Assembly: GCA_963667785.2 (NCBI GenBank)
Contig: CAXXMU010000006.1
Coordinates: 736,001-800,000 of the forward strand
Length of the DNA: 64,000 bases
Source: Alphaproteobacteria bacterium
GTDB lineage: Bacteria; Pseudomonadota; Alphaproteobacteria; UBA828
Reading direction: 5' to 3'
Shown here: piece by piece, positions 23,686-58,260 of the stretch
Position numbering within the stretch: the stretch's first letter is position 1
How the letters are laid out: every line of letters starts with the position of its first letter
Made by a program: the position numbers and the translations under genes
The notes under the pieces: model-generated
The model's database searches: none
Seen by the model: the letters and a program-made list of their open reading frames with translations, nothing else
Told to the model about the DNA's origin: nothing

Positions 23686-24708
23686 CTACTCGTCGTAGTG
23701 GTAGGTGCGGGCGACCATTCTCTCCGAGTGGTCGCCCGCCTTGATTCTCTCGTAGCGCCAGGGGTTGTCCGGCCCGACGCAGCCGGGGATCGCCTCGACC
23801 TCCACCTCGTAGTCGACGCCGAAGAACTGCACGAGCGAGTAGCGCCGGGCCCCCGAGGTGTTGATGACCCGGTGCATGGTCGAAACGAACAGGTCGTTGG
23901 TCCACTGCTGCATGAGATCGCCGAGATTGACGGCGAAGCTGCCGTCCACCGGCGGCAGGATGAGCCACTCGCCGTCCCGGCTCAGCATCTGCAAACCCTC
24001 CCGGTCCTGCCAGACGGTAGTGAAGCACTCGTAGTCCGTGTGCGCGCCCAGCCCGATATGGGCGATGTCGAGGGGCTCGGGCTGGGGCTCGTAGTAGCAG
24101 ACGCGGAGCCGGGCGAGCGGCTTGCTGTACTTCGAGGTGAAGTACCCTTCCTCCAGGTCGAGCGCGTATTCGAAGGCGCGGAAGATCTGGCGGCCGAGCT
24201 CGAGCTGGCAGTCGAAATAGGTGCCGAGTGCCCAGCGGAAGTCGGCAGGCTCCGCGGGCCAGTTGTTGGGGCCGTAGAAGCGGATGCCCCGCACATGGTC
24301 GGGATCGTCCGCCGGCAGGTCGTGCGCCATCTCGATGGCCTCCGACATGTCGGAGGAACCTTCGAGGCTGTGGTCGGCGGTAATGCCGCCCGCCGGCACG
24401 TAGCCCCGGTGGTTGGGCCAGTCGAGGTAGTGGTTGCGCATCTTCTCCTCGACGGGCAGCGCGAAGAAGCGCTGCATCGCGGCCCGGGCCCGCGCAATCA
24501 CAGCCTGCGGGAACTGGTGGTTGACGATGTAGAAGAAGCCGGGGCCGGCGCACGCCGTGCGGATCGCGCGAGCGAGCGCCCTGCGCTCGGCCAGGCTCGG
24601 CGAATAGAGCGCGCCGAAATCGACGATGGGCACGTCTTCGCGCGAGGCCCGGCGCACCGCCGGCGCGTGCATGCCTTCTCTCACTTGAAACGGTGTTGCT
24701 TTGGCCAT
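23686..24708 (-). CDS. 2OG-Fe(II) dioxygenase, isopenicillin-N-synthase-like family
   Basis: PIVDF, GFFYIVNH, HTD, NLGDLM..WTND, HRV, RYS. Confidence 0.9.
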   Translation of the reverse strand: MAKATPFQVREGMHAPAVRRASREDVPIVDFGALYSPSLAERRALARAIRTACAGPGFFYIVNHQFPQAVIARARAAMQRFFALPVEEKMRNHYLDWPNHRGYVPAGGITADHSLEGSSDMSEAIEMAHDLPADDPDHVRGIRFYGPNNWPAEPADFRWALGTYFDCQLELGRQIFRAFEYALDLEEGYFTSKYSKPLARLRVCYYEPQPEPLDIAHIGLGAHTDYECFTTVWQDREGLQMLSRDGEWLILPPVDGSFAVNLGDLMQQWTNDLFVSTMHRVINTSGARRYSLVQFFGVDYEVEVEAIPGCVGPDNPWRYERIKAGDHSERMVARTYHYDE

Positions 24709-24833
24709 TGCGGGTCCCCCGTCGCCCCTCATCTTTGGCATGATAGCGCCAACCGTTTACACATGACGGCGAGCCTATAGCGCATTTCGCCTGGCCATAC
24801 CCCATCCGCAATCAGCATCGCAGGGAGACGAAT

Positions 24834-25655
24834 ATGGAGACATCTCTTCACGGCCGCCGCGCCCTGGTTACCGGAGCGGGAAGCGGCATCGGCGCCGCCA
24901 TCGCCGAGGCGTTCGCGCGCGAGGGCGCGCATGTGGCGGTGCACGCGCGGAGCGCCGAGCGCGCTCGTCCCGTCGTCGATGCCATCGAGGCGGCGGGCGG
25001 CCGGGCCTTCGCCGCGCCTGCAGACCTGCGCGACCGCGCCGCCATCGCGCCGATGTGCCGGGCTGCCGTCGAGCGGCTGGGCGGCCTCAACATCCTGGTC
25101 AACAATGCCGGCGTCTTCATCCGCAAGGGCGTGGCGGAGATGGACCTCGAGAGCTGGGACGCCATGGTCGAGACCAACCTCACCGCCTCCTACCTCGCGA
25201 CCCAGGCGGCGCTGCCGGCGATCCGCGCGTCCGGTGCCGGCGCATCGGTGATCTTCGTCTCCTCCATCGCCGCCGGCGCCTATTCCGCCGGCTGGGGCAC
25301 TTACGCCATGACCAAGAACGGCCTCAACGCCTTCATGCACTGCCTCGCGGACGAGCTCGGCGGCGCCGGCGTGCGGGTCAACTCGATCTGCCCTGGCTGG
25401 GTCGAGACGAGGATGGCGCAGGAGGCCCACCGAGGGCTCGCGGCGGAGATCGGCCTCGACTACGAGACCCACTACGCGAACAACATGCGCGCCAACATGC
25501 TGGGCGCGCTGGTGACCACGGACAGCATCGCCGACATGGCGGTCTTCCTCGCGAGCGAGCGCGGCCGCCACATCACGGCGCAGGAGCTCACCGTCTGCGG
25601 CGGCTGCCTGCCCGGCGCCAGCGCAGAGCCGCAGGACGCAGAAGCGGCGGAGTAG
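24834..25655 (+). CDS. Short-chain dehydrogenase/reductase
   Basis: TGAGSGIG, NNAG, YAMTK, NSICPGWVET. Confidence 0.9.
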   Translation: METSLHGRRALVTGAGSGIGAAIAEAFAREGAHVAVHARSAERARPVVDAIEAAGGRAFAAPADLRDRAAIAPMCRAAVERLGGLNILVNNAGVFIRKGVAEMDLESWDAMVETNLTASYLATQAALPAIRASGAGASVIFVSSIAAGAYSAGWGTYAMTKNGLNAFMHCLADELGGAGVRVNSICPGWVETRMAQEAHRGLAAEIGLDYETHYANNMRANMLGALVTTDSIADMAVFLASERGRHITAQELTVCGGCLPGASAEPQDAEAAE

Positions 25656-25949: not shown

Positions 25950-26735
25950 ATGAGAGTCGGTCTGGAAGGCAAGCGAACACTGGTAACGGGAGCCGCGAGC
26001 GGCATCGGCCGCGCGATCGCGGAGGCCTACGCGCGAGAAGGAGCGACGGTCGCGGTCCACGCGCGTAGCGAGGAACGGGCGGCGGAGACACTCGAATCTA
26101 TCGCCAACGCCGGCGGCACGGCCTTCGCCGCACCGGCCGATCTGACCGAGCCCGCGGCCATCGAGGCGATGTGCAAGGCCGCCATCGAGAGACTCGGCGG
26201 CATCGACGTGGTCGTGAACAACGCCGGGGTCGCCGACTACGCGAAGGTCGTCGACATGGACGAGGCCATGTGGGACTGGATCATGGCCGTCAACCTGAAG
26301 GCGCCGTACCTGGTCTCCAAGCACACGCTGCCGGCGATGATCGAGCAGGGCGCCGGCGGGGTGCAGCTCTTCAATGCGTCCACCAACGCCAAGACCGCCG
26401 ACGCGGAGTGGACCGCCTACAACACCACCAAGCACGGGCTGGTGGGCTTCGTGCGCTGCCTCGCCGCCGAGGTGGGCGAGCACAACATCCGGGTCAACGC
26501 CATCTGTCCCGGCTGGATCGAGACCAAGATGGCGGTGGAGCTGCACGAGAGCATGGCGCAGGACCTGGGCGAGCCCTACGAGAAGGTCTACGACGAGAGC
26601 ATGCGCACCAACATGCTGAGCGCCCTGATCCCGCCGACCGCGATCGCCGGGATGGCCGTCTACCTCGCCGGCGATCCCGGGCGCTACGTGACCGGCCAGG
26701 CGATCAACGTCTGCGCCGGCCTGGCGGTCTACTGA
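25950..26735 (+). CDS. Short-chain dehydrogenase/reductase (paralog of 24834)
   Basis: TGAASGIG, NNAG, YNTTK, NAICPGWIET; shares VAVHARS and MRxNML with the upstream SDR. Confidence 0.9.
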   Translation: MRVGLEGKRTLVTGAASGIGRAIAEAYAREGATVAVHARSEERAAETLESIANAGGTAFAAPADLTEPAAIEAMCKAAIERLGGIDVVVNNAGVADYAKVVDMDEAMWDWIMAVNLKAPYLVSKHTLPAMIEQGAGGVQLFNASTNAKTADAEWTAYNTTKHGLVGFVRCLAAEVGEHNIRVNAICPGWIETKMAVELHESMAQDLGEPYEKVYDESMRTNMLSALIPPTAIAGMAVYLAGDPGRYVTGQAINVCAGLAVY

Positions 26736-26748: not shown

Positions 26749-27636
26749 TCAGCCCGGCTGTCGATCGAGGAAGCCACGCAGCGCCGCGAAATAGGCGTCC
26801 GGCTCCTCGAAGAAGGGCGTGTGCGAGCTGTTGGGAAAGACCACGCTCTCCGCATTCGGCAGCACGTCCTGCATGAGCATGGCGCCTTCGGGCGTGAGCT
26901 CGTCGTGGAGGCCGCTCACGATCAGGCAGGGCACGGCGATGCGCCCCATCTCGGAGAGCCGGTCCCAGTCCTTGAGCGTGCCGACGCAGCAGAACTCGTT
27001 GGGGCCCCACATCGTGCCGTAGACATCCATGTTGATGCCGTCGAGCGAGCGTTGCAGCGGCGCGGGCCACGTGTCGAGCCGGCACAGGTGCCTGTGGTAG
27101 AGGATCGTGATGGCGGCCTCGTAGGTGGGGTGGTCGGTGGTTCCCTGGGCCTCGTGACGCTGCATCATGGCCACCGTCTCGGACCCCAGGGCGGCGCGAA
27201 GGCGCTTCATCTCAGCGACCGTGTGCGGCACGCAGCCCGAGCCGTTCGCGATCACGTAGGACGCGACGTTCTCCTGGTACTTCAGGCAGTAATCGGTTCC
27301 CAGCCAGGTTCCCCAGGATTGCCCGAGCAGGTGGACGCGGCCGAGCCCGAGCGCGGTCCGCACCGCTTCGACCTCGTCGACATAGCGGGGCACGTTGAAG
27401 AGCGAGGTGTCGTCGGGCTTGTCGGATTCGCCGCAGCCGAGCTGGTCGTAGGCCACCACCCGCCAGCCGTCATCCGCCATCACGGAGTGGCTGTCCCGCA
27501 CGTAGTCGCAGGGCAGGCCGGGGCCGCCATGAAGGACGAGCAGGACCCGTTCGCCCTCACCGAAGCTGTAGACCGCCACCTCGCCGCCGTCGACGGCGAC
27601 GCGGCAGGTCTCGTCAGGCTGTCTTTCTTCGCTCAT
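26749..27636 (-). CDS. Proline iminopeptidase-family alpha/beta hydrolase
   Basis: HGGPG, YDQLGCG, GQSWG nucleophile, SSHTPF. Confidence 0.88.
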   Translation of the reverse strand: MSEERQPDETCRVAVDGGEVAVYSFGEGERVLLVLHGGPGLPCDYVRDSHSVMADDGWRVVAYDQLGCGESDKPDDTSLFNVPRYVDEVEAVRTALGLGRVHLLGQSWGTWLGTDYCLKYQENVASYVIANGSGCVPHTVAEMKRLRAALGSETVAMMQRHEAQGTTDHPTYEAAITILYHRHLCRLDTWPAPLQRSLDGINMDVYGTMWGPNEFCCVGTLKDWDRLSEMGRIAVPCLIVSGLHDELTPEGAMLMQDVLPNAESVVFPNSSHTPFFEEPDAYFAALRGFLDRQPG

Positions 27637-27649
27637 CGATCGTTCCCCG

Positions 27650-28627
27650 TTACCTGGAAGCGCCGTAGGTGCCGCGATACTCGGCATACATGCGCTCGTA
27701 GCGCTCCGCATTCATCGTGGAGTAGACGCGAAAGTCGAAGTCGATGGGCTTGTCCATCACCTCGGAGACGAAGCTCCAGGTCGTCTCGCGGATGGCGGCG
27801 ACGACCGTCGCGGCCGCGAAGCGGTGGCGCAGCTCGTCGGTGGCCGGCGTCTCGAAGTAGGTCTCGAGGTAGGGGTCTATCTCGTCCGGCCTGATCTCGA
27901 TGTTCATGGCCAGCACCCCGAGGTCGAACAGGTCCACCGTGAACCCGCCGAACTCCCAGTCGACGAACCAGACCCGCTCACCGTCGTCCATGATGTTCTG
28001 CGGGTTGAGGTCGTTGTGACCGAAGACGATGGTCGCCGGCCCCATCGCGCGCTCCAGCGCCTCGTTCGCGGCGGCGAGCCCCGGCAGCATCGCACGCCAG
28101 CGCTCGTAGAGTCGGTCCGAGCGCTCCTGCAGCAGCCGGATGTACGAGCGGTGATGCTGGAACGGCCAGAACATGAAGCCCGTCGAGTCCAGGTGCTTGT
28201 GGGCCTCGCGATGCAGCCGGCGGAAGAGGCGGGCAACCTTGGCAAGCCGCTCGGGCTCGTGCACGTCGGCCGGCAGCAGCGAGCGGCCTTCGATGAAGCG
28301 GATCACCATCAGGCCGGGCTCGGCGTAGACCACCTCCGGCGAGACGCCCGCCGCGTGGGCCGCGCGAAAGGCCTGGAGCTCGTGCTCGCGGGAGACGCCG
28401 AAGAAGGGCTCGTCCTCGCCGACGCGGATCACGTAGCGCTGGCCGGCGTCGTCGGCGGTGAGGTTGATGTTGCTCAGGCCCCCGCTCAGCACGGCGGGCT
28501 CGACCGCGCCGCTCCAGATCGGCAAGGCGCGGGCGCGCTCGATCGCCGCTCCGCTGCGGGCCTCCATGCCGCGGGCGCCGCCGATCAGATCGTAGACCTC
28601 GTCGTCCGAGGTGGGAGTCTTCGTCAT
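27650..28627 (-). CDS. Choline/ethanolamine kinase-like phosphotransferase
   Basis: LSGGLSN, Brenner motif GHNDLNPQN, DWEFGG; ATGA-coupled to the upstream gene. Confidence 0.85.
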   Translation of the reverse strand: MTKTPTSDDEVYDLIGGARGMEARSGAAIERARALPIWSGAVEPAVLSGGLSNINLTADDAGQRYVIRVGEDEPFFGVSREHELQAFRAAHAAGVSPEVVYAEPGLMVIRFIEGRSLLPADVHEPERLAKVARLFRRLHREAHKHLDSTGFMFWPFQHHRSYIRLLQERSDRLYERWRAMLPGLAAANEALERAMGPATIVFGHNDLNPQNIMDDGERVWFVDWEFGGFTVDLFDLGVLAMNIEIRPDEIDPYLETYFETPATDELRHRFAAATVVAAIRETTWSFVSEVMDKPIDFDFRVYSTMNAERYERMYAEYRGTYGASR

Positions 28628-31071
28628 GCCCTGACCCGGTCGTTGCCGGCGTCGTAGAGCGGCCGCAGGTGGAGCTCGGCCGGCACCTCCCGCGTCGCGA
28701 CTTCCAGCGAGTAAGTGCCGGAGTCGAGGTAGTCGTCGCTGACGCCCGCCGGGTTCCGCACGTAACCCATGCCGATGCTCCGGCCGACGGTGTGGCCGAA
28801 GCCGCCGGAGGCGAGCCAGCCGACGCGCTCGCCGTTTCGCAAGATCGTCTCGCGGCCCCAGAGCTGCACCGCCGGGTCGTCCGCGATGGTGAACGTGACC
28901 AGGCGGCGGGTCAGCGGCTGCTCCCGCTGCTTCCGCACGGCGTCCTGGCCGATGAAGGGGGTGGGCTTGTCGAACGCGACCGCGAAGCCGAGGCCCGCCT
29001 CCAGGGGGTTGAAGTCGGGGCCGATATCCGCCGCCCAGACGCGATAGCCCTTCTCCAGCCGCAGGCTGTCGATCGCCCGGTAGCCCGCGTCGCGCAGGCC
29101 GCAGGCGGCGCCCGCCGCCTTCAGCGCGTCGTAGACCGTGAGCATGTACTCGGTGGCGACGTGGAGCTCCCAGCCGAGCTCGCCCACGAAGGTGATGCGC
29201 ATGGCGCGCACCGGCGCGCCCGCCACATGGATTTCCCGCACCGCGCCGAAGGGGAAGGCCTCCGCGCCCAGCTCGCCTTCCGTCACGGACGCGAGGATCT
29301 CCCGGGCGCGCGGTCCCATCAGCGCGAGCACGCCGTAGGCCGAGGTGACGTCGATCAGCGCGGCGTGGGCGTCCGCGTCGATGTTCCGGCCGATATGGTC
29401 GAAGTCGTGGGTCGCGAAGCCCGTGCCGGTGACGATGTAGAAGGAGTCCTCGGCGATCCGCGCCACGGTCAGGTCGCATTCGATCCCGCCGTGACGGTTG
29501 AGCATCTGGGTGTAGGTGACCCGCCCCGGCGGCTTGCCCACGTCGGCGGCGCAGATGCGCTGCAGGCACGCTTCCGCATCGCGCCCGACCAGCGCGAACT
29601 TGGCGAAGGAGGACTGGTCGAAGAGGGCGGCCGCGTCACGGCAGGCCGCGTGCTCGACGGCGACGTGCGCGTGCCAGTTGGGGCGCGTGAAGCTCTCGAT
29701 CTCCACCGGCTCGACGCCGTCGGGCGCGAACCAGTTGGGCCGTTCCCAGCCGAACTTGGCGCCGAAGCAGGCGCGATTGTCCCGGAGGCGGTCATAGATC
29801 GCGCTGCGCCGGAGCGGCCGGCCCGCCTTCATCTCCTCGCGGGGCCAGACGATGGTGTAGTGGTGGCCCTGCCCCTCCAGCGAGCGAGCCAGGACTTGGC
29901 TGTCGGCGCGGTGGTAGCCGCCGAAGCGGCGGATATCGAAGCTCCAGATGTCGTAGGGCGGCTCGCCGTTCAGAATCCACTCGCCGAGCGCCATGCCGGC
30001 GCCGCCGCAGCCGGTCAGCCCGTAGGCATTGAAGCCCGCGCTCACGAAGATGCCCCGTACCTCGGGCGCCTCGCCCATCACCGGGTTCTGATCCTCGGTG
30101 AAGGATTCCAGGCCATTGAACCAGCTCTTGATGCCGGCGGTCTTGAGCACGGGAATCCAGTCGAGCAATCCCTCGAGCCGCGGCATGAAGTGGTCGAGGT
30201 TCTCGGGCATGAGCTTGAATTCGTGATCCTTGGGGATCGGCTCGGTGAACGGGATCGGATCGGGGTCGTACTGGCCGACGAGCAGCCCGCCCACCTCCTC
30301 GCGGATGTAGTGCCAGAGGTCCGGGTCCCGCGTCGTCGGCAGATCGCGGGTCACGCCCTCGATCGGCTCGGTGATGAAGTAGCAGTGATGCGAGGGCTGG
30401 ATCGGGACGTTCACGCCCGCGAGCCGCCCGATCTCGCGCGACCAGATGCCGCAGCAGATCACCGCGATCTCGCAGCGGATCGTGCCCCGCTCCGTCTCGA
30501 CGGCGGCGACACGGCCCCTCTCGATCTCGAAGCCGGTGACCGCCGTGTCCTCGAAGAGCCGGGCGCCGTACTGGCGCGCCCCCTTGGCGAGCGCCATGCA
30601 CGTGTCCGATGGGCTCAAGGCGCCGTCGGTGGGGATGTAGAGCGCGCAATCCACGTGATCGATGGTCATGAAGGGGAAGAGCGCCTGCGCCTCCTTCGCC
30701 GATATCAGCTCCATCTCGACGCCGAAGGAGCGCGCCGTCGTGATCGCCCGCTCGTACTCGCGCCGGCGGTCGGGATTGGAGGCGACCCGCATGCCGCCCG
30801 TCCGGTGCCAGCCGGTGGCCTGGCCGGTCTCCTCCTCCAGCGAGGCGTAGAGGTCCGCGCCGTAGGCCATGAGCCGGCCTGCGTTGGGGTCGGTGCGGAA
30901 CTGCGCGAAGGCGCCGGCGGCGTGCCAAGTCGAGCCCGACGTGAGCTTGGCCTTCTCCACCAGGACGACATCCTCGCGGCCGTGCTTGGCCAGATGGTAC
31001 GCGGTGGCACAGCCGATCGCCCCGCCGCCGATGATCACGACGCGCGCCTGGTCGGGAAACCCCTGGGTCAT
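28624..31071 (-). CDS. GcvT-family FAD-dependent amine dehydrogenase (dimethylglycine/sarcosine/methylaminobutyrate oxidase-like)
   Basis: IIGGGAIG, TSGSTWHAAG (flavinylated His), GWERPNWF, ITFVGELGWEL, SLRLEKGY folate-binding domain. Confidence 0.9.
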   Translation of the reverse strand: MTQGFPDQARVVIIGGGAIGCATAYHLAKHGREDVVLVEKAKLTSGSTWHAAGAFAQFRTDPNAGRLMAYGADLYASLEEETGQATGWHRTGGMRVASNPDRRREYERAITTARSFGVEMELISAKEAQALFPFMTIDHVDCALYIPTDGALSPSDTCMALAKGARQYGARLFEDTAVTGFEIERGRVAAVETERGTIRCEIAVICCGIWSREIGRLAGVNVPIQPSHHCYFITEPIEGVTRDLPTTRDPDLWHYIREEVGGLLVGQYDPDPIPFTEPIPKDHEFKLMPENLDHFMPRLEGLLDWIPVLKTAGIKSWFNGLESFTEDQNPVMGEAPEVRGIFVSAGFNAYGLTGCGGAGMALGEWILNGEPPYDIWSFDIRRFGGYHRADSQVLARSLEGQGHHYTIVWPREEMKAGRPLRRSAIYDRLRDNRACFGAKFGWERPNWFAPDGVEPVEIESFTRPNWHAHVAVEHAACRDAAALFDQSSFAKFALVGRDAEACLQRICAADVGKPPGRVTYTQMLNRHGGIECDLTVARIAEDSFYIVTGTGFATHDFDHIGRNIDADAHAALIDVTSAYGVLALMGPRAREILASVTEGELGAEAFPFGAVREIHVAGAPVRAMRITFVGELGWELHVATEYMLTVYDALKAAGAACGLRDAGYRAIDSLRLEKGYRVWAADIGPDFNPLEAGLGFAVAFDKPTPFIGQDAVRKQREQPLTRRLVTFTIADDPAVQLWGRETILRNGERVGWLASGGFGHTVGRSIGMGYVRNPAGVSDDYLDSGTYSLEVATREVPAELHLRPLYDAGNDRVRA

Positions 31072-33827: not shown

Positions 33828-34208
33828 ATGCTCGATTATGTGACGTTGAAGGACGAGGGCGGCCTGGAGCCGTGGCCGCCGCTGGAGGAGCTGCCGTTCG
33901 TGAACGTGCTCGACGGCAACCCGGTGCACGAGGGGCGTTTCGATCTCGGCGGCTTCGGCATGCGCACGATGGCAGGCGTGTGGCAGTGCACGCCGGGCAA
34001 GTTCGAGTACACCTATCCGGGTGACGAGATCTGCACCCTGCTTCAGGGCAAGATCCACGTGACCGAGCAGGACGGCACCACCCACACCTACACCGCCGGC
34101 GACATCTTCTACACGAACAAGGGCGAGACGGTGACCTGGGTGATCGAGGAGACCGTCCGCAAGGTGTTCTTCATTCACGATCCCGACGCCGAGCAGCTCG
34201 CCGCCTAG
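33828..34208 (+). CDS. Cupin (DUF861/EutQ-like)
   Basis: GVWQCTPGKF, DEICTLLQG, TVRKVF. Confidence 0.85.
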   Translation: MLDYVTLKDEGGLEPWPPLEELPFVNVLDGNPVHEGRFDLGGFGMRTMAGVWQCTPGKFEYTYPGDEICTLLQGKIHVTEQDGTTHTYTAGDIFYTNKGETVTWVIEETVRKVFFIHDPDAEQLAA

Positions 34209-36430: not shown

Positions 36431-36496
36431 TCGCCGGCCGTGACCGCAGCGAAGCATCCGGGGTACTGTCGCGCGTCCGGAGAGCGGGAGGAACAC

Positions 36497-37399: not shown

Positions 37400-37530
37400 C
37401 GCAAGCATGCATCCGGGCGCAAGGGACGGCGGAGTCTTGCCGCTGAGTCCGGCGCCGGCGTAAGCTGATCGCGGCGAGTGACGGCGCGCCCCTGCTTCCG
37501 TGCGTGGGCCGATTACGGGAAGGCGAGACA

Positions 37531-37914: not shown

Positions 37915-37923
37915 GCGCTAGCC

Positions 37924-38576: not shown

Positions 38577-38600
38577 CGGTCGGCAGGGCGTCCCACCCCG

Positions 38601-42263: not shown

Positions 42264-42290
42264 CCGCCCCGCCCCGTCGAGGAGCGGGCG

Positions 42291-42791: not shown

Positions 42792-42793
42792 CG

Positions 42794-45816: not shown

Positions 45817-45850
45817 GCGTCCGCGCCGACTCTAGACAGGCCTCGACGCC

Positions 45851-46579: not shown

Positions 46580-46585
46580 AGGCCC

Positions 46586-48455: not shown

Positions 48456-48546
48456 GTCTCGCTAGGGCCCGTTCCGGCCGATCGTCAGTGCAAGTGAGAG
48501 GAAGGGATGTGCCCCGCCGGAGCGGGGCACACCGCCTGAGGTTCGC

Positions 48547-52366: not shown

Positions 52367-52672
52367 TCAGAAGTAGAAAAGCTGCTCCTGCGTGACGCCC
52401 TCTTCCCCGAAACTGATCAAGCCGGCGCCGACGACGTCTCCGACCTGCCACTTGCACCATGCGGTGCCGCCCTCGACCACCACATCGGTGATGTCCATCC
52501 TGTCGCCGATCTTTCTCAACTCGGCGATATAGCCCGGCAGGTCGTTCTTTCCGTAGACGGCGCCGTCCTTGTCCAGAAGCCTGTAGTCGTCAGTCACGTT
52601 TGCGGCGATTTCTGCAGCGTCCAGGCCGCTGAAGCCGCCGGCATATCCACCCAACTTGTCCGCTGCCGACAT
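52367..52672 (-). CDS. Small SnoaL/NTF2-like protein
   Basis: DVVVEGGTAWCKW pattern; SD GGAG; lies in line between the PhyH and dehydrogenase genes. Confidence 0.6.
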   Translation of the reverse strand: MSAADKLGGYAGGFSGLDAAEIAANVTDDYRLLDKDGAVYGKNDLPGYIAELRKIGDRMDITDVVVEGGTAWCKWQVGDVVGAGLISFGEEGVTQEQLFYF

Positions 52673-52790
52673 GTCACTCTTCTCCAGCACGTGTTGTGGT
52701 CATGCGAGATAACCGGTCCCTTCTGTTGTCGCGCAACGGCCGTTGCCGCACAAGCGCGGCCTCTCCGGGTTCCCGGCCGTAAATCGTCGT

Positions 52791-53660
52791 TCAGGCGTGC
52801 GCGCCATTCAGGAACGTGTCGATATCGGGGGTGCGATAACCGTCGCGGGTCCACAGCACCGGAAAGTAGTTCTCGTCGATGGTGTTGTCGCCGAGGCGCT
52901 TGTAGCGGCTGTAGATCGAGCCGACACCCTGACCCAGGCGGTCGGGAACGTAGCGCGTGTCGCTTCGCATGGCGTGCAGCACGAGAGAGCGACGGGGGAC
53001 CGCCGCGGTGTTGTCGCCCGAGCCGTGCCAGGTCCATCCGTGGTGGAAGGAGCCCCCGCCCCTAGGAACCTCCACGTGGACGATTTCCGGCTCGACCCCC
53101 TCCCTGGCCGCGGCCAGCTCCATGTACTTGCGGTAGTCCTTGGGGCCGTGGAACTCGCCTTCGGGGAGCGAGTGGCGCCAGCGGTGCGAGCCGCGCACGA
53201 ATTCGAGCGTGCCTGCATCGGCCCTGGTGTCGTCGAGCGCCATCCAGCAGCTCAGCAGCTCGGTCGGCTGGAACCAGTGCAGGTAGGCGTTGTCCTGGTG
53301 GAGCGCCAGCGGCCGTGTGCCGGGCGGCTTCCACAGCACGTTGTCCACCATCAGTCGCGCGCCCGGCCAGCCGCCGAGCGTGGCGATCGCCCTGCCCAGG
53401 TCGGCTCGCATGACCACCGACGCGATCGTCCGATCGGCCTTCCATGCGTTGCAGATCTGCCGGGTGAGCGATGGATCGCTCTCGCCTTCCTGCCAGTTGA
53501 CCTCGTCCGGCAGGACTCCGGTTTCGAATTCGCCGCGAAAGAGCCTCTCGTAGCGCGCGCTCACCGCCTCGACCGTCTCGTCATCGATCAGCCTGTCGAC
53601 GACCAGAAAGCCGTCTTCGTTGAACCGGTCGATCTGTGCGGGCGTGAGCTCGAATGCCAT
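52791..53660 (-). CDS. PhyH-family 2OG-Fe(II) dioxygenase
   Basis: FNEDGFL, LHQD, WMALDD..GTLEFVRGSH, WHGSGDN..RRS. Confidence 0.88.
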   Translation of the reverse strand: MAFELTPAQIDRFNEDGFLVVDRLIDDETVEAVSARYERLFRGEFETGVLPDEVNWQEGESDPSLTRQICNAWKADRTIASVVMRADLGRAIATLGGWPGARLMVDNVLWKPPGTRPLALHQDNAYLHWFQPTELLSCWMALDDTRADAGTLEFVRGSHRWRHSLPEGEFHGPKDYRKYMELAAAREGVEPEIVHVEVPRGGGSFHHGWTWHGSGDNTAAVPRRSLVLHAMRSDTRYVPDRLGQGVGSIYSRYKRLGDNTIDENYFPVLWTRDGYRTPDIDTFLNGAHA

Positions 53661-53681
53661 CTGCGCGCCTCCTGCGCCCCG

Positions 53682-55148
53682 TCAGGGCAGGCAGTCCAGG
53701 TACATGTTCACATCCCAGTCGGAGACTTGCCAGATGAACTTGTTCCACTCGTCGCGCTTGTAGACGTCGTAGACCCGGTAGAGGTCGCCGGGGAGGGCGG
53801 ACCTGATCACCGCGTCGTCGGCCAGCGCGTCGAGCGCGTCGCGCAGGGTGGTGGGAATCCGCTCGATGGCTTCGCCTGCGTTGAGCAGGTCGACGAAGTT
53901 GCGGTCCTCGGGCTCCCCCGGATCGATTCGGTTCCTGATGCCGTCGTCGATGGCCTTCAGCAGCGCCGCCTGCATCAGGTAGGGATTGACCATGCTGTCC
54001 ACGCAGCGGAACTCCAGCCGGTCCGGGCTCGAGACGCGAATGGCGCAGGACCTGTTCTGCAGTCCCCAGCCTGCGCCGACCGGCGCCCACAGGCCCGTGT
54101 CGTTCAGCCGCCGGTAGGAGTTCACCGTGGACGAGCCGATGGCCACCAGCGCGTTGATGTGCGCGAGCATGCCGCCCAGCGCGTGGCGGCCGAGCTCCGA
54201 CGGCATCCAGGCGTGGTCCGGGTTGTCGATCTCGTTGGTGCCGCCTCTGCGGTAGGTGAAGACCTCGTCCATCGCCGGCTGGCCGTGGCGGCCGATCGCC
54301 TCGACCGCATCCTCGCCGCCCCGCCATAGCGAGAGGTTGTGGTGGCAGCCGTTGCCCGACAGGCTCATGTAGGGCTTGGACATGAACACCGCGATCAGCC
54401 CGCACTCGCGCGCCACCTGCGCGCAGAGCTGGCGGTAGCTGGTCAGGCGGTCGCTGGTGCGAAGCGCGTCGTCGTACTGAAAATTCATCTCGACCATGCC
54501 GGGGGCGTCCTCGTGATCCGCCTGGATCATGTCGAGGCCCATCGCCGTCCCGTACTCGTAGAGCTTCAGCCAGACCTCCTGGAGCTGCTCGAACTGATCG
54601 ATGTGGTAGGCGTAGGGCTTGGTCGTCTCGAGATAGGGCTTCTCGCCGTCGCCCGGCTTCAGCCACAGCATCTCGGGCTCGCAGCCGACACGCATGTGCA
54701 GGCCGTCATGATCCTGCCGGAACGCGTCGTGGACGCGCCGCAGGTTTCCCCGTGAATCCGAGTCGAGATACTCCTCGGGACGCTCCGGATCCTCCCGGCT
54801 GAAAAACACCGTGCAGAAGACCCTGGCGACGCGCTTGTTCCAGGGAAGCTGGCAGAAGGTCTCGGGGTCCGGGAGGGCGAGAAGCTCGGACGCGTTGGCG
54901 GGAAACCCGATCAGCTCGCCGTCCCTGTCGGCGACGACGTTGGTGATGCCGCCGATCCAGGTCTGCATCCCCTCCCGGGCCGCACGCTCCCAGTGCTTGG
55001 CCGGGATCATCTTGCCCATGATGCGGCCGGTGATCGAAATATACTGGTAGTAGATGGCGTCGATCTTGAGCGCGTCGATCTTCTTGCGAACCTCCGCAAC
55101 CAGCACGTCGCGGGCCGGATCGTTCAAGTAGTCCTGCAGGTCGCTCAT
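53682..55148 (-). CDS. Glutamine-synthetase-like gamma-glutamyl-amine ligase
   Basis: GCEPE, HEDAPGMVE, FMSKP..GNGCHHNLS, NSYRRL, NRSCAIR, EFRCVDSMVNPYL. Confidence 0.88.
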   Translation of the reverse strand: MSDLQDYLNDPARDVLVAEVRKKIDALKIDAIYYQYISITGRIMGKMIPAKHWERAAREGMQTWIGGITNVVADRDGELIGFPANASELLALPDPETFCQLPWNKRVARVFCTVFFSREDPERPEEYLDSDSRGNLRRVHDAFRQDHDGLHMRVGCEPEMLWLKPGDGEKPYLETTKPYAYHIDQFEQLQEVWLKLYEYGTAMGLDMIQADHEDAPGMVEMNFQYDDALRTSDRLTSYRQLCAQVARECGLIAVFMSKPYMSLSGNGCHHNLSLWRGGEDAVEAIGRHGQPAMDEVFTYRRGGTNEIDNPDHAWMPSELGRHALGGMLAHINALVAIGSSTVNSYRRLNDTGLWAPVGAGWGLQNRSCAIRVSSPDRLEFRCVDSMVNPYLMQAALLKAIDDGIRNRIDPGEPEDRNFVDLLNAGEAIERIPTTLRDALDALADDAVIRSALPGDLYRVYDVYKRDEWNKFIWQVSDWDVNMYLDCLP

Positions 55149-55162
55149 CGTCGTTGCGAGCC

Positions 55163-56524
55163 CTAGACGACTTCGAGGTATCTGGCGCGCTCGGCGGCGC
55201 TGGTCTCGCGGCGCAGCGCGGCCTCCTCCTGGCGGCACGCTTCGACGAGATGCTGCACGAACGTCTCTCCCCAGATTTCGCCCGCGCGATCGGAGCGGGC
55301 GAGTCGGTCCGTGGCTTCGAAGAGGTCGTGGGGCAGCGCCGCGCCCCCAGCGACCGTAAGACCCGGCCCCCCGCCGGTCAATTCGGGTGGGAGCTCGGCG
55401 TCCGACTCGAGGCCCCAGAGCCCCGCGCCCAGCACGAACGCAAGGGCCATGAAGGGATTGATGTCGGAGCCGGGCAACCGGTACTCGAGCCGGCATCGCT
55501 CCGCCGGCTCGGGCACCACGCGGACCGCGGCGGCATAGTTCTGCACGGCCCAGGACGCCGTCTTCGGCGCCCAGTTCTGCGGCGCGTGGCGGCGGTAGGC
55601 GTTGGCGGTGTGGTGGGTCAGCGGCATCGCTTCGGGCGCGAGCGCGACCAGCCCCGCCACGAAGGAGCGGAAGGTGCGGCTCATGCCTTTCTCGTCGGCC
55701 GGATCGGGGAACAGGTCTTCGCCCGTTTCACGCTCGGTCAGCGACAGGTGGATGTGGCCCGACAAGCCCGGAGACTCGCCGCCGAGCTGCGCCATGAACG
55801 ACGCCGTCTTGCCCTGCCGCCGGCAATACGCCTTCGTCAGGAGCTTGAAGAACGCTGCGCTGTCGGCGGCGCGCAGCGGGTCGCCGTGACCGAGAGTGGC
55901 TTCGAAGCATCCCGGTCCGAGCTCGAGGCCGAGCGCCAGCACGTCGATGTCGCCCTCGACGAGAACCCGCTCCAGGCTCGCCACGAAATCCGCGTACGTC
56001 GCCGCGCTCTCCCCGGCCCAGCAGCGGTTGTCCTTGGCGAACATGTCGAGGGCCTGAAATCCCGAGTCTCTCAGGGTGTCGGCATCGTCGTCGAGCACCA
56101 GGAACTCGAACTCGAAGGCGGCCCGCACTCCCAGGCCCCGGTCGCGGGCCTTCGCCACCAATCGTTGCAGCAGCCGCCTCGGCGAGATTTCGGCGGAGGG
56201 GCCGATGTAGTCGGCGACGAGGGCGCAGGCGTTGGGCTCGAAGGGATACGGGCGGAGCGACGCAGGATCGATCGCGATCGGCTCGCCGACGAACGGGCCG
56301 GCACCGAAGACCCGCTCCCCGGTGTCCCATTCGTACACGACGTTGACGAATGTTCCGCCCGGTCCGAACAGCTCCGCGAGGTCGGCGACCCCGACGCGGC
56401 GCTCGCGGAAGGTGGCATTCAAGTCGAATATGCCGACGTGGGCGACGTCGCAGGAGTCGTCCCCCAACTTCCTTACCAGAGCGGTCAAGTCTTGAACTTC
56501 GAGGCCGGCAGCCTCACGCGCCAT
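55163..56524 (-). CDS. Glutamine-synthetase-like protein (divergent)
   Basis: FEFEF, ELGPGCFE, SGHIHLSL, NAYRR, LEYRLPGSDINPF. Confidence 0.85.
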   Translation of the reverse strand: MAREAAGLEVQDLTALVRKLGDDSCDVAHVGIFDLNATFRERRVGVADLAELFGPGGTFVNVVYEWDTGERVFGAGPFVGEPIAIDPASLRPYPFEPNACALVADYIGPSAEISPRRLLQRLVAKARDRGLGVRAAFEFEFLVLDDDADTLRDSGFQALDMFAKDNRCWAGESAATYADFVASLERVLVEGDIDVLALGLELGPGCFEATLGHGDPLRAADSAAFFKLLTKAYCRRQGKTASFMAQLGGESPGLSGHIHLSLTERETGEDLFPDPADEKGMSRTFRSFVAGLVALAPEAMPLTHHTANAYRRHAPQNWAPKTASWAVQNYAAAVRVVPEPAERCRLEYRLPGSDINPFMALAFVLGAGLWGLESDAELPPELTGGGPGLTVAGGAALPHDLFEATDRLARSDRAGEIWGETFVQHLVEACRQEEAALRRETSAAERARYLEVV

Positions 56525-56769
56525 GGTCGTTTTCTCCTCCTACCGGTCGCCAATCGGGTCACACATGCTCTTATCGCGCGGTGCTTGCGTTCTCAGGCTG
56601 CAGCGCACGGACGATATCGAGTCCGACCGGCTCTCGCGGGGCCGGCCTCTGCGAATGTTAGTTGAGCGCCGCCGGCAAGGCCATTTCGGAAGTCACCGTT
56701 CGAGCGCGCGCGGATACGCGCGAGCGCGCGATGCGAGCGCCCGGCGCCTGAGGGATACGCAGGCCTCGG

Positions 56770-58260
56770 CTACTTGTCGATGTCGCCCATGCACATGTAC
56801 TTGACCTCGAGGAACTCCTCGAGGCCGTAGTGCGAGCCCTCGCGGCCGATGCCGGATTCCTTCATGCCGCCGAAGGGCGCCACCTCGGTGGAGATGATTC
56901 CGGTGTTGATGCCGACGATGCCGTATTCGAGCTGCTCCGCCACCCGCCAGATGCGCCCGATGTCGCGGCTGTAGAAGTAGGCCGCGAGGCCGAACTCGGT
57001 GTCGTTGGCGAGCTGCACCGCCTCCTCGTCGGTCTCGAAGCGGAAGATCGGCGCGAGCGGGCCGAAGGTCTCCTCGCGGGCGACCTTCATCTGGGTGTTC
57101 ACGTTGGCGATCACGGTCGGCTCGAAGAAGTTGCCGCCGAGCGGGTGGCGCTTGCCGCCCTGGATCACCTCGGCCCCCTTGTCGACGGCGTCCTGGATAT
57201 GCTCCTCGACCTTGGCGACGGCGTCCGCGTCGATCAGCGGCCCCTGCTGGGTCTCGCCCTCGAGGCCGGGGCCGACGACCAGCTTCGACGAGGCCTCGGC
57301 CAGCCTCTCGGCGAAGGTGTCGTAGACGCCGCCCTGCACCAGGAAGCGGTTGGCGCAGACGCAGGTCTGGCCGGTGTTGCGGTACTTCGACTGGATCGCA
57401 CCGCTGATGGCGGAGTCCATGTCGGCATCGTCGAAGACGATGAAGGGCGCGTTGCCGCCGAGCTCCATCGAGACCTTCTTGACCGTGTGCGCGCACTGCT
57501 CGAGCAGCACCTTGCCGACCTCGGTCGAGCCGGTGAAGGAGAGCTTGCGCACGATGGGGTTGGCGGTCATCTCGCCGCCGACGTCGCCGGAGGGCCCCGT
57601 GATCACGTTGAAGACGCCGGCCGGGATGCCCGCCCGCTCGCCGAGCTCGCAGAGCGCGAGCGCGGAGAAGGGCGTCGCCGTCGCCGGCCGCGCGATCACG
57701 GTGCAGCCGGCGGCGAGCGCAGGCCCCGCCTTGCGCGTGATCATGGCATTGGGAAAGTTCCACGGCGTGATCATGCCGACGACGCCCACCGGCTCCTTCG
57801 TCACCACGATGCGGCGGTCGCTGAGATGCTGCGGGATCACGTCGCCATAGGCGCGCTTGCCCTCCTCGGCGAACCACTCGATGAAGGAGCCGCCATAGCC
57901 GATCTCGCCCCGCGATTCCGCCATCGGCTTGCCCTGCTCGGCGGTCATGATGATGGCGAGGTCCTCCTGGTTCGCCATCATCAGGTCGTACCACTTGCGG
58001 AGGATGGCCGCGCGCTCCTTGGCGGTCTTCGCGCGCCAGGCGGGGAAGGCCCGGTTCGCCGCCTCGATGGCGGCGCGGGTCTCGGCGGCGGAGAACGCCG
58101 GCACCGTGCCGATCACCTGGCCGTCCGCCGGGTTGACCACGTCCGTGGTGCGGCCCGACTTCGCATCGAGCCAGCGGCCGTCGACATAGCATTGCTGGCG
58201 GAAGAGCGACGGATCCTGGAGGAAGACGCCCTTCACGATCTCGGCGGCAGCGGTGGACAT
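56770..58260 (-). CDS. gabD: NAD(P)-dependent succinate-semialdehyde dehydrogenase
   Basis: ITPWNFPNAMITRK, FTGSTEVG, MELGGNAPF, RNTGQTCVC, EETFGP, PFGGMKESGIGREGS. Confidence 0.9.
   Translation of the reverse strand: MSTAAAEIVKGVFLQDPSLFRQQCYVDGRWLDAKSGRTTDVVNPADGQVIGTVPAFSAAETRAAIEAANRAFPAWRAKTAKERAAILRKWYDLMMANQEDLAIIMTAEQGKPMAESRGEIGYGGSFIEWFAEEGKRAYGDVIPQHLSDRRIVVTKEPVGVVGMITPWNFPNAMITRKAGPALAAGCTVIARPATATPFSALALCELGERAGIPAGVFNVITGPSGDVGGEMTANPIVRKLSFTGSTEVGKVLLEQCAHTVKKVSMELGGNAPFIVFDDADMDSAISGAIQSKYRNTGQTCVCANRFLVQGGVYDTFAERLAEASSKLVVGPGLEGETQQGPLIDADAVAKVEEHIQDAVDKGAEVIQGGKRHPLGGNFFEPTVIANVNTQMKVAREETFGPLAPIFRFETDEEAVQLANDTEFGLAAYFYSRDIGRIWRVAEQLEYGIVGINTGIISTEVAPFGGMKESGIGREGSHYGLEEFLEVKYMCMGDIDK

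Follow-up and report, generated by a model that had tools for sequence, protein, structure and literature searches.

The 35-kb stretch at positions 23686–58260 of the window (the whole piece of DNA analysed, 64,000 nucleotides long) is a patchwork, most of its parts familiar, rather than a single new pathway: several separate gene sets for the import and breakdown of small methylated amines are gathered there by a sponge-associated bacterium. On balance we favour reading it as a lineage-specific super-cluster, in which six or more catabolic modules directed at small methylated and biogenic amines, each conserved on its own, were brought together between native genes, probably through recombination at dispersed repeats. 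Every module is distributed more widely in its own right: a TMADH with a Liv-type ABC importer, a DMGDH with a choline-kinase-like gene, a histamine-dehydrogenase-like enzyme, the GS2-GS1-PhyH2 triad, a His-less GT1 with Cupin_3, and an ACAD-like gene with Cupin_7. Amine genes are enriched across the whole genome, which has about seven TMADH/HADH-clade, five DMGDH-like and nine GS-like genes; these counts bear out the diverged paralogs noted in a preliminary description, and its view of the region as catabolic and amine-directed is supported. The public runs containing the stretch are mainly sponge metagenomes, which fits its suggestion of a toolkit for a series of related N-alkyl amines, possibly host-derived.

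GC at third codon positions (GC3) and frame plots served to pick thirty-three candidate open reading frames (ORFs), which were then scanned with Pfam and NCBIfam; gene density and third-position GC mark these as real genes, not chance ORFs. All enzyme families previously listed were found where they had been placed, among them two SDRs, a Choline_kinase-fold kinase, an ACAD-fold protein, two GT1 proteins, two Cupin_3 and two Cupin_7 proteins. Missing from the earlier list were four ORFs, encoding a proline-iminopeptidase-family hydrolase, an FtsH-M41-like protein, a TPR protein and a SnoaL-like protein. Each of the three 2OG oxygenases (23686–24741, 36440–37399 and 52791–53660) has an HxD motif. 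As described before, no HTH or other regulator domain and no ETF domain was detected by Pfam or NCBIfam among the region's ORFs; ETF genes lie at three other sites in the genome. The Pfam scan found no gamma-glutamyl-amide hydrolase of the PuuD or IpuF type in the region.

Flanking the block are native genes assigned by Pfam and NCBIfam. On the left, outside the inserted block, are a DIOX_N/2OG-FeII_Oxy dioxygenase (DIOX, 23686–24741, minus strand) and the short-chain dehydrogenase SDR1 (24834–25655, plus strand), and on the right is a GabD-type SSADH (56770–58260, minus strand; NF008415, 828.4 bits with a cut-off of 828). At the ‘empty site’ of the related genome G002, DIOX (91% identical) adjoins OmpA and SDR1 (89%) without the block, and SSADH (97%) adjoins MepK without GS2; the OmpA-DIOX-SDR1 and SSADH-MepK groups are 7 kb apart there, separated by four unrelated genes. 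Because G002 has these genes by the same OmpA and MepK flanks without the rest, 25.9–56.6 kb of the window looks like an insertion or assembly, and SSADH, earlier taken for a pathway member, proves to be a native flank gene instead.

Proposed import and oxidation of methylated amines

The Liv-type ABC importer is encoded in two runs recognized by Pfam: livG, livF and a TPR protein gene on the plus strand (44347–46579, the TPR gene at 45851–46579), and livM, livH and the gene of a Tat-signal binding protein on the minus strand (46586–49827). The binding protein begins with MKANITRRKFMAATG, which contains a twin-arginine motif. Accompanying the importer at L002, L004, L082–L084 and L232, and at the paralogous locus L197, is the TPR gene. 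Orthologs of livM, livH and the binding protein (47–73% identity) adjoin canonical TMADH genes at L217 and L225–L233, and among 13 loci with a canonical-signature TMADH, 11 carry the binding-protein ortholog and 7 the whole Liv set. Judged by this company, the Tat-exported binding protein and LivHMGF would import a trimethylamine-like amine, the first step of the scheme we propose. Relative to relatives, livF has a 1-nt deletion near 45189 that produces a frameshift, and the gene is intact in all 17 related loci checked; the frameshift, if real, could disable the importer.

Three two-domain enzymes (Oxidored_FMN plus Pyr_redox_2), TMADH1, TMADH2 and TMADH3, score 757, 577 and 826 bits, respectively, against trimethylamine dehydrogenase of Methylophilus W3A1 (1djn), sharing its FMN/4Fe-4S/ADP two-domain architecture, Cys30 and the four cluster cysteines. 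TMADH1 (31557–33734, plus strand; signature CYSYLDLE) has a remodelled active site, in which C30, Y60, S74, W355 and the four cysteines are kept, and Y169L, H172D, W264L and D267E are changed. In TMADH3 (50033–52207, minus strand; signature CALWYHWD) the pocket is enlarged; Y60A and S74L are changed and the remaining sites retained. Both occur in a region that also encodes a SnoaL-like small protein (52367–52690, minus strand; Pfam 26.5 bits, slightly below the cut-off), conserved at 85–89% in close relatives.

TMADH2 (34352–36430, plus strand; signature CQEVYHWD) matches the histamine dehydrogenases of Nocardioides simplex (3k30; 725 bits, its best score) and Rhizobium (6de6; 701 bits) over the full length. 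In TMADH2, Gln and Glu occupy TMADH positions 60 and 74, and the W355 position is acidic (Glu); these are residues that mark histamine dehydrogenase. The histamine type is predicted from sequence, and unlike the known enzymes TMADH2 is paired with a Cupin_3 protein and a PhyH oxygenase: the EutQ-like Cupin_3a (33828–34208, plus strand) and PhyH1 (36440–37399, plus strand; HRD motif), both assigned by Pfam. The Cupin_3a–HADH pair also occurs at L202, L216 and L218. The genome has a second HADH-like gene elsewhere, and that one adjoins a pyruvoyl histidine decarboxylase.

In the second step of the scheme, the TMADH-family enzymes would oxidatively N-dealkylate tertiary or secondary amines (TMADH3 with its widened pocket, TMADH1 with its rebuilt active site and TMADH2 as the histamine type), passing electrons to the ETF encoded elsewhere. 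As TMADH1 and TMADH3 each depart from the Methylophilus enzyme at some of its TMA-binding and catalytic residues, this step may not involve TMA itself. The canonical route leads from TMA through DMA and MMA to GmaS (10.1101/2020.12.31.424895). This route, which includes the TMADH of Methylophilus W3A1, runs through dmd-tmd, then GmaS and the N-methylglutamate pathway. Shared with that route are the ETF in the genome, an importer orthologous to those beside canonical TMADH and a GmaS-like ligase; however, the full substrate and catalytic signature is found in none of the three paralogs, mgs and mgd genes are absent from the region, and a 2OG oxygenase comes after the ligases.

The left module opens with SDR2 (25950–26735, plus strand; Pfam), followed on the minus strand by a proline-iminopeptidase-family alpha/beta hydrolase (PIP, 26749–27711; TIGR01250, 288 bits, above the cut-off of 167.65), a choline-kinase-fold kinase (27650–28627; Pfam Choline_kinase, 65 bits) and a dimethylglycine-dehydrogenase-type flavoenzyme (DMGDH, 28624–31071; Pfam DAO–FAO_M–GCV_T–GCV_T_C; 517 bits against human DMGDH). 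The kinase start and the DMGDH stop overlap by 4 bp. SDR2 keeps company with PIP, kinase and DMGDH at L155–L161. Of 401 Alphaproteobacteria, 44 have a homolog of the kinase, and in 17 of 18 distant loci its neighbour is a DMGDH-like gene; elsewhere these pairs sit within choline and glycine-betaine gene sets, the orthologous ones beside OpuAC importers, BetA/BetB/BetI, a GbdR-like AraC regulator and ETF. Given this context, the DMGDH-type enzyme and, more tentatively, its choline-kinase-like partner would form the third step, demethylating dimethylglycine-like products of choline or glycine betaine onto tetrahydrofolate. The domain architecture is that of the DMGDH of choline, glycine betaine and dimethylglycine catabolism, but the pair here adjoins TMADH-family genes and the proline-iminopeptidase-type hydrolase, with no bet genes. 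To our knowledge, no role has been described in that catabolism for a conserved choline-kinase-like partner.

Predicted gamma-glutamylation and accessory modules

The GS2-GS1-PhyH2 triad (52791–56524, minus strand), recognized by Pfam, NCBIfam and the oxygenase motif, consists of two GS-like ligase genes (53682–55148 and 55163–56524) and the 2OG oxygenase PhyH2 (52791–53660). Among distant loci, 48 of 54 have GS2 upstream and 43 of 60 have PhyH2 downstream. Elsewhere, PAS, a sigma54 activator and an ABC importer of the PotD type come after the triad; at L116 and L121 a P450 takes the place of the oxygenase. The solved structures nearest GS1 include GmaS (7cql, 9qur), and the two ligases score 218 and 142 bits against the NCBIfam gamma-glutamylputrescine synthetase, below its cut-off.

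In the isopropylamine (Ipu) pathway of Pseudomonas sp. KIE171 and Arthrobacter aurescens TC1, the amine is first converted to a gamma-glutamyl amide by a GS-like ligase, after which the alkyl group is hydroxylated by an oxygenase (PMC6776027). A similar ligase-then-oxygenase logic is proposed for the fourth step, to which the P450-bearing triads lend a parallel: GS1 and GS2 may gamma-glutamylate a primary amine, and PhyH2 may then hydroxylate the gamma-glutamyl-alkylamide, a 2OG oxygenase standing in for the P450. The module departs from Ipu on three counts: it has a pair of ligases where Ipu has a single one, a PhyH-type 2OG oxygenase stands where Ipu has P450, ferredoxin and reductase, and an IpuF-type hydrolase is absent. 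GS-like ligases are also common to the gamma-glutamyl polyamine pathways (Puu of E. coli, Pau of Pseudomonas, GlnA2/3/4 of Streptomyces), and the triad elsewhere adjoins PotD/PotF/YdcS-like importers and sometimes an SSADH-like ALDH; in contrast to those pathways, there is neither a PuuB-type FAD oxidase nor a PuuD-type hydrolase here, and an oxygenase occupies the oxidation step.

Two further gene pairs identified by Pfam, and an orphan protein, complete the block. The ChrR-like cupins Cupin_7a and Cupin_7b (37504–38352, plus strand; 49% mutual identity) precede an ACAD-fold flavoprotein (38601–39995, minus strand), a pairing also seen at L257. Homologs of the ACAD-fold protein occur in 10 of 401 genomes, all ten kinase-positive (nine of nine when our own genome is set aside), and 13 of 22 PhyH2-positive genomes are also kinase-positive. 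The ACAD-like gene adjoins the same Liv ABC subfamily at L255, L256 and L259 and the kinase at L254, L255 and L256, with kinase alone at L254 and importer alone at L259; a Tdm gene is near it at L254 and L255. The orphan (40119–40859, plus strand; Pfam) is an FtsH-M41-like peptidase domain protein with a HEAGH motif and no AAA domain, 73–79% conserved in relatives.

GT1a (40980–42263, plus strand; 188 bits against UGT203A2) is a GT1-fold protein without the catalytic His: a Pro aligns with the His of FGH, this Pro is invariant in alignment A1, and all 90 family members read have FGP or FGA at this site. GT1b and Cupin_3b form an operon with a 2-nt gap between the genes (42438–44083, minus strand; Pfam). 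The GT1-Cupin_3 pair is kept in 59 of 69 distant loci; PotD-type importers and ALDH genes are among its neighbours elsewhere. Human UGT1A4 and UGT2B10 carry Pro or Leu where the catalytic His is expected. The proteins here share their GT1 fold, with the nucleotide-sugar motif intact and the catalytic His replaced; they differ in being bacterial, soluble and translationally coupled to Cupin_3. Both human enzymes N-glucuronidate tertiary amines (PMC5075577). As a fifth component, ACAD-Cupin_7 and the His-less GT1-Cupin_3 pair may serve as accessory amine-handling modules.

Arrangement in relatives and competing readings

Dispersed repeats occupy the module joints. Repeat A (38380–38580) lies at the Cupin_7b/ACAD joint, with 61 matches in its own genome and dozens of copies in G001 and G002; repeat B (42285–42445) lies at the GT1a/Cupin_3b joint, with 64 matches; and repeat C (58435–58705) lies between SSADH and MepK, with 21 matches, a further copy at 17969–18270 and a fragment at 40898–40939. 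The intergenic segment 25656–25949 has five other copies in the genome. In the relatives G002 and G003, as much as 2 Mb lies between modules. G002 has the left module at 1.389–1.401 Mb, GS2 to Cupin_3b at 3.515–3.527 Mb and Cupin_7-ACAD-M41-GT1a at 3.5466–3.5512 Mb; G003 shows yet another order. Collinear with the window, from SDR2 to GS2, is G001:C1 alone, in whose copies TMADH1 is interrupted and the kinase truncated.

The repeats at the joints, the different arrangement in each of four related genomes, the broken copies in G001:C1 and the livF frameshift here would also suit functionally uncoupled neighbours with a broad theme only, whose juxtaposition arose neutrally as repeats drove the rearrangement of a symbiont genome. 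We think this unlikely: all modules are amine-related, which is not expected of random neighbours, and in each of the four related genomes GS2-GS1-PhyH2 is continuous, on one strand, with TMADH3 and the importer.

The preliminary description had presented the 35 kb as one system, with an alkaloid or nicotine direction. A pathway of several steps devoted to one complex N-alkyl amine or alkaloid, with every gene acting on one substrate series, would account for the dense packing, the long same-strand runs, the gene order in common with G001:C1, the recurrence of ACAD, kinase and importer together in other families, and the joint presence of ACAD-, kinase- and PhyH2-like genes at genome level (9/9 and 7/9). 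We nevertheless judge it quite improbable, given the distances between modules in G002 and G003, the native origin of DIOX, SDR1 and SSADH, and the differing arrangements even among close relatives, which leave the single system unsupported. At neighbourhood level outside close relatives the genes do not co-occur, an outcome that the preliminary description had itself named as refuting its reading: none of 65 GS1 loci has TMADH3, GT1 or the kinase, and none of 76 GT1a loci has GS1, GS2, PhyH2, ACAD or the kinase. Co-occurrence elsewhere holds for some modules, ACAD sharing genomes and loci with kinase and importer, but not for the whole set as one neighbourhood.

Nothing favours the alkaloid direction, Pfam and NCBIfam returning no alkaloid-specific enzyme family. 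The hybrid nicotine pathway (Pno, methylaminobutyrate oxidase, SSADH) has three superfamilies in common with the stretch, the TMADH family, the DMGDH family and SSADH; here, however, SSADH belongs to the flank, gene context places the DMGDH-type enzyme with betaine catabolism, and no molybdenum hydroxylase or other nicotine-ring enzyme was found in the same scans. Also at odds with a single system is that some of the parts correspond to routes already known: the TMADH and its importer, the DMGDH of choline and glycine-betaine loci, and the histamine-dehydrogenase type.

A cluster for the biosynthesis of an amine natural product bearing sugar and phosphate groups, built with the GT1 proteins, GntI-like kinase, 2OG oxygenases and ACAD-fold oxidase, is most improbable. 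In NCBIfam the kinase best matches GntI, the N-oxide kinase of guanitoxin (123 bits, below the cut-off of 357), the GT1 proteins match the macrolide-GT type in NCBIfam, and the weak PDB relatives of PhyH2 are tailoring enzymes such as SnoK, MysH and EvdO2. Yet core enzymes of PKS, NRPS, terpene or amidinotransferase type were absent from the Pfam and NCBIfam scans, the region encodes an importer and not an exporter, the kinase orthologs lie in choline and betaine catabolic loci, and GT1-Cupin_3 adjoins PotD-type importers and ALDH genes. An assembly chimera formed at the dispersed repeats, although the joints coincide with repeats of 21–64 copies, can be given very little credence, as the independently assembled chromosome G001:C1 is collinear, the window lies within a 1.2-Mb contig and the repeats are just 155–270 bp long.

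Counting against the favoured super-cluster is the small overlap of the TMADH clade with the other modules in the class sample: with only two candidates scored per genome, its matches coincide with the kinase in two of six cases and with ACAD or PhyH2 in one of six. The lack of a gamma-glutamyl-amide hydrolase and of a regulator in the region, and the livF frameshift, also weigh against it. Some recurring cross-module links suggest that the modules may be more integrated than ‘patchwork’ implies. Three of the conserved modules are uncharacterised, and being widespread and unstudied they are real leads.

Gene content of the region and its host genome

Third-position GC and frame plots, followed by Pfam and NCBIfam scans of 33 candidate ORFs, confirm the enzyme inventory of the preliminary description for positions 23686–58260. 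Encoded there are three TMADH-family flavoenzymes, one DMGDH-type enzyme, two GS-like ligases, one SSADH (56770–58260), two SDRs (24834–25655 and 25950–26735), a kinase of the Choline_kinase fold, an ACAD-fold protein, two GT1 proteins, two Cupin_3 proteins and two Cupin_7 proteins. SSADH scores narrowly above the GabD model (828.4 bits, cut-off 828), the HxD motifs are intact in all three 2OG oxygenases, and the Liv-type ABC importer (44347–49827) carries a twin-arginine motif at the start of its binding protein. Neither a regulator nor an ETF domain is present among the ORFs of the region, as had also been claimed; ETF genes are located at three other loci of the genome. Missing from the earlier list are a proline-iminopeptidase-family hydrolase, an orphan FtsH-M41-like protein, a TPR protein and a SnoaL-like ORF. 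The flanks of the region contain genes for an OmpA/Pal-like protein, a MepK-like protein and glutathione synthetase, which mark the host as Gram-negative.

The closest public loci belong to alphaproteobacterial MAGs. Public runs containing the stretch are mostly labelled sponge metagenome, with at least half of the sampled words present in four runs from two studies; no RNA run is among the public runs listed as containing it. The 4.09-Mb genome is abundant in amine genes, with 13 two-domain OYE/TMADH-type matches (seven of them at least 40% identical to TMADH1), five DMGDH-like and nine GS-like genes, and a Tdm-like frame of 821 aa. One paralogous cluster brings ankyrin, Rieske, GcvT, TMADH, SBP-LivHM and TPR genes together at a single locus, and another includes a GBBH-like TauD gene with an ETF-CCG fusion. 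At the former locus (L197, G000:C6:~539–540 kb), a 376-aa ankyrin-repeat protein (locus positions 4098–5228) adjoins the Rieske oxygenase, the GcvT-like gene and the TMADH paralog; its eukaryote-like repeats are compatible with a host-associated lifestyle. A further locus (L199, G000:C2:168000–184000) has a histidine decarboxylase of the pyruvoyl type (PF02329) together with a PotA-type ABC importer and an HADH-like gene of the TMADH family, an arrangement by which histamine would be both made and consumed at one place.

Arrangement of the modules in related chromosomes

The ~35-kb region had been read as one large uncharacterised system for amine or alkaloid catabolism. Amine catabolism is supported by the present analysis; the alkaloid pathway is not. 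For a nicotine (Pno/MABO/SSADH) pathway, pyridine-ring hydroxylases and oxidases would be expected together with Pno; the Pfam scan of the region's ORFs shows neither a molybdopterin domain nor one of the ring-hydroxylase kind. Synteny with three related chromosomes (G001, G002 and G003) argues against a single system, the modules being rearranged in G002 and G003 and native genes occupying the edges.

In G002, the left module (SDR2 to TMADH2) is at 1.389–1.401 Mb, the segment from GS2 to Cupin_3b at 3.515–3.527 Mb and Cupin_7-ACAD-M41-GT1a at 3.5466–3.5512 Mb. The same chromosome has OmpA-DIOX-SDR1 (67, 91 and 89% amino acid identity) 7 kb from SSADH-MepK-epimerase (SSADH, 97%), and between them lie HyuA, HyuB, an aminotransferase and a Glu-dehydrogenase-like gene. 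Because these two groups are near neighbours in G002, separated by four unrelated genes, DIOX (23686–24741), SDR1 and SSADH are native genes, and 25.9–56.6 kb of the window appears from gene order to stand in place of the four. G003 shows a third order, TMADH1-PhyH1-Cupin_7-ACAD-M41-Cupin_3b-GT1b-Liv, with DMGDH-kinase-SDR2 and Cupin_3a-TMADH2 located 1.2 Mb away. Of the three, G001:C1 alone is collinear with the window; it is without GT1a, its TMADH1 is interrupted and its kinase truncated. The left module of the relatives has its own second Liv-type importer, at the position of SDR1 in the window. A drop in GC content (0.65–0.69 over 22–58 kb, against 0.71–0.74 in the flanks) is unusable as an island marker, because the native DIOX, SDR1 and SSADH fall inside the low-GC span.

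Located exactly in the inter-module spacers are dispersed repeats of three short families, which have dozens of copies in the related chromosomes and no Rfam match. Repeat A (38380–38580, ~200 bp) has 61 BLAST matches in its own genome, repeat B (42285–42445, ~155 bp) 64 and repeat C (58435–58705, ~270 bp) 21. Further repeat sites in the window are 17969–18270 and 40898–40939, and the spacers SDR1–SDR2 and GS2–SSADH also have other copies. Rfam returned no match at E ≤ 1 over 20000–61000, and the sole tRNA of the window (11621–11695) is far from the borders of the region. Relative to its relatives, livF (45100–45816) has a 1-nt deletion at ~45189 (GACGAAGG to GACGAGG), which breaks the LivF ATPase ahead of the Walker A motif; the gene is intact in all 17 related loci checked, and the deletion may reflect a true pseudogene or a sequencing error. 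Both the joints and the frameshift are read from the assembly and its collinearity with G001:C1.

Enzymes and conserved modules

All three TMADH-family proteins (TMADH1, 31557–33734; TMADH2, 34352–36430; TMADH3, 50033–52207) comprise the Pfam domains Oxidored_FMN, OYE-like_second_a-b and Pyr_redox_2. Residue positions in the TMADH, HADH and UGT readings derive from alignments made here; residue roles follow the literature on these enzymes. In full-length alignment to 1djn, C345, C348, C351 and C364 are kept in all three, as is a cysteine at the position of Cys30, the residue for 6-S-cysteinyl FMN. The FMN TIM barrel, 4Fe-4S cysteine motif and ADP-binding domain are common to the three and to trimethylamine dehydrogenase (EC 1.5.8.2), but none keeps the full signature of that enzyme, made up of the substrate ‘aromatic bowl’ (Y60, W264 and W355) and the triad (Y169-H172-D267). 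TMADH3 carries Y60A and S74L and keeps Y169, H172, W264, D267 and W355, which implies a putatively widened pocket. TMADH1 keeps Y60, S74 and W355 and carries Y169L, H172D, W264L and D267E, a signature found only in near relatives and, varied, in loci L219–L221. TMADH2 has Q60, E74 and E355, the residues to be expected of a histamine-dehydrogenase type, which it is predicted to be; outside the close lineage the pair of Cupin_3a and HADH-type genes occurs in L202, L216 and L218. Two alphaproteobacterial MAG contigs (L219 and L221) carry four to five paralogs of the TMADH family in tandem within 20 kb, with the active-site signatures CALWYHWD, CALMYHWD, CALVYHWD, CALWSDWE and CYCFIDLE; local expansion of the family is even stronger there than in the window.

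The canonical signature, CYSWYHWD, is present in the TMADH of 13 other loci, 11 of which have an ortholog of the binding protein and seven the whole Liv set (47–73% identity). A TPR gene (45851–46579) is kept also in L232 and in the paralogous L197. In close relatives it is wedged between livF and livM, and it occupies the same place in a MAG of the Rhodospirillaceae (32%) and in the genome's own paralogous TMADH-SBP-LivHM cluster (34%; L197 from 13673), which suggests a conserved accessory function alongside importers of this subfamily.

The DMGDH-type enzyme (28624–31071) has the architecture DAO-FAO_M-GCV_T-GCV_T_C and scores 517 bits to 5l46 and 376 bits to the DMGO 1pj5. Adjacent to it is the kinase (27650–28627), which has homologs in 44 of 401 sampled Alphaproteobacteria and is adjoined by a DMGDH-type gene in 17 of 18 distant loci. 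Elsewhere the surroundings of this pair are those of choline and glycine-betaine catabolism: OpuAC importers, BetA/BetB/BetI, a GbdR-like AraC regulator, inositol-monophosphatase-family genes and ETF. DMGDH orthologs 48–59% identical in other genomes sit with choline/betaine genes; in the window no bet or opu gene is adjacent.

The GS2-GS1-PhyH2 triad occupies 52791–56524. GS1 has canonical motifs for ATP and metal binding (KPYMSLSGNGCHHNLS, NPY and EPE); GS2, only 28.5% identical, has the divergent motifs GLSGHIHLS, NPF and EFE. Their Gln-synt_C scores are 259 and 226 bits, respectively, and the closest solved relatives of GS1 include GmaS (7cql and 9qur). Against curated models, GS1 falls below the cut-offs (285 against 469.6 for TIGR03105, 218 against 650 for NF045547), as does GS2 (158 and 142). 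Among distant loci (<85% identity), 48 of 54 have GS2 immediately upstream, and PhyH2 comes immediately downstream in 43 of 60, the full triad being present in 38 of 54 loci with sufficient flank; TMADH3, GT1 and the kinase are found in none of 65 such loci. The triad is followed elsewhere by a PAS protein, a sigma54 activator and a PotD/YdcS-like ABC importer, and in L116 and L121 a P450 takes the place of PhyH2. SAR11-like PhyH2 matches (G033, G392 and G356; 45–51% identity) were rejected; such low-identity matches are probably paralogs, because three of four loci inspected are without GS neighbours.

Compared with Ipu-type tagging, the region has the ligase and the oxygenase but not a glutamine-amidotransferase-type hydrolase: the Pfam scan of its ORFs shows neither a GATase nor a Peptidase_C26 domain. 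From the Puu/Pau routes it has only ligase-like genes and an SSADH-type ALDH, with no PuuB- or PuuD-type domain in the Pfam and NCBIfam scans. Just upstream (14954–21468) are genes for a gamma-glutamyltranspeptidase (GGT), an M20 peptidase, an O-methyltransferase, a DUF6635 protein and an amidase. The GGT, M20 peptidase and amidase lie 2–9 kb from the region, and the GGT or the amidase could be a candidate for the gamma-glutamyl-amide hydrolysis missing from the GS-PhyH module.

Both GT1a (40980–42263) and GT1b (encoded with Cupin_3b, 42438–44083) keep the HHGGNN...E block and have Pro opposite the catalytic His of the UGT203A2 ‘FGH’ motif. The nucleotide-sugar block HHGGNNSFNE...DGHDNA (H334, G335, G336, N337, N338 and E342) is invariant over 50 sequences. 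The catalytic His is absent from all 90 family members read, which have FGP or FGA, and P16 is invariant in alignment A1. In these respects the proteins recall human UGT1A4 and UGT2B10, in which the His is replaced by Pro/Leu. Those two enzymes N-glucuronidate tertiary amines, according to PMC5075577. Of 69 distant loci, 59 have a Cupin_3 gene directly after GT1a, and the stop codon of the one often overlaps the start codon of the other. The contexts are varied, many with GntR, a PotD-like importer and an aminoaldehyde-type ALDH and one with an agmatinase-family gene; GS1, GS2, PhyH2, ACAD and the kinase occur in none of 76 distant GT1a loci. A protein-atlas search with GT1a returned generic ‘glycosyltransferase’ clusters only.

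The ACAD-like protein (38601–39995), encoded beside the two Cupin_7 genes (37504–38352), has homologs in 10 of 401 genomes, and the nine genomes other than this one are all kinase-positive. Its gene adjoins the same importer subfamily in L255, L256 and L259 and the kinase in L254, L255 and L256, and in L257 it directly precedes a Cupin_7 gene. A gene for a TMAO demethylase of the Tdm type (DUF1989 and GCV_T) is near ACAD in L254 and L255 (G036 and G213), and a Liv-type importer is also near the Tdm, ACAD-like and choline-kinase-like genes of L255. With Tdm so near to ACAD and kinase, the ACAD-like protein is a candidate for a role as an enzyme in methylamine metabolism, and the company of ACAD, kinase and importer in other families favours more integration than a patchwork. 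Among 22 other genomes with a PhyH2-like match, 13 are kinase-positive, against 43 of 400 overall, and seven of the nine ACAD-positive genomes have a PhyH2-like match; because the genomes are related to each other, these counts exaggerate the association. TMADH-clade matches, with two candidates scored per genome, occur in six other genomes and overlap little with the other modules.

Next to ACAD, 40119–40859 encodes an FtsH-type M41 peptidase domain (HEAGH) with a predicted N-terminal hydrophobic helix and without an AAA ATPase domain; relatives keep it at 73–79%, between ACAD and GT1a or Cupin_3b. A GGT gene is also near the ACAD-Cupin_7 pair in L257.

A proposed super-cluster for methylated and biogenic amines

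The region is best read as a super-cluster that is specific to its lineage and directed at methylated and biogenic amines. Families, cofactor residues, gene contexts and synteny are observed directly; the substrates, the step order and any flux between modules are inferred. An amine would be imported by the Tat/Liv system, then undergo ETF-linked oxidative N-dealkylation by the TMADH-family enzymes and folate-linked demethylation by the DMGDH-type enzyme. Primary amines would be gamma-glutamylated by GS1 and GS2 and hydroxylated by PhyH2, a tagging-then-hydroxylation step modelled on the Ipu pathway as outlined in PMC6776027. This step would stand in for the NMG steps, which normally come after GmaS (10.1101/2020.12.31.424895).

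That the three widespread uncharacterised modules here represent new amine chemistry is a tentative and rather improbable proposition. GS2-GS1-PhyH2 may couple a gamma-glutamyl tag to 2-oxoglutarate-dependent hydroxylation, dealkylating or deaminating small alkylamines; if so, the triad would give marine Alphaproteobacteria an alternative to the N-methylglutamate and Puu routes that relies on an oxygenase. The His-less GT1, translationally coupled to Cupin_3, may perform amine-directed N-glycosyl transfer, or the reverse cleavage, in amine catabolism. The ACAD-fold/Cupin_7 module, a neighbour of Tdm and of importers of the TMA type, may supply a missing enzyme for methylamine oxidation. Our searches of the open-access literature found neither the cluster nor any of the three modules described.

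Between marine animals and their microbes, methylated amines (TMA, TMAO, choline and betaines) serve as major currencies of nitrogen and carbon. In this sponge-associated alphaproteobacterium, import, flavin-dependent N-dealkylation, folate-linked demethylation and gamma-glutamyl tagging are stacked side by side, and each close relative has put the stack together in its own way. The most valuable leads are the three conserved modules, each small enough to be expressed and assayed; each could supply steps that are missing from the turnover of methylamines and polyamines in the sea.
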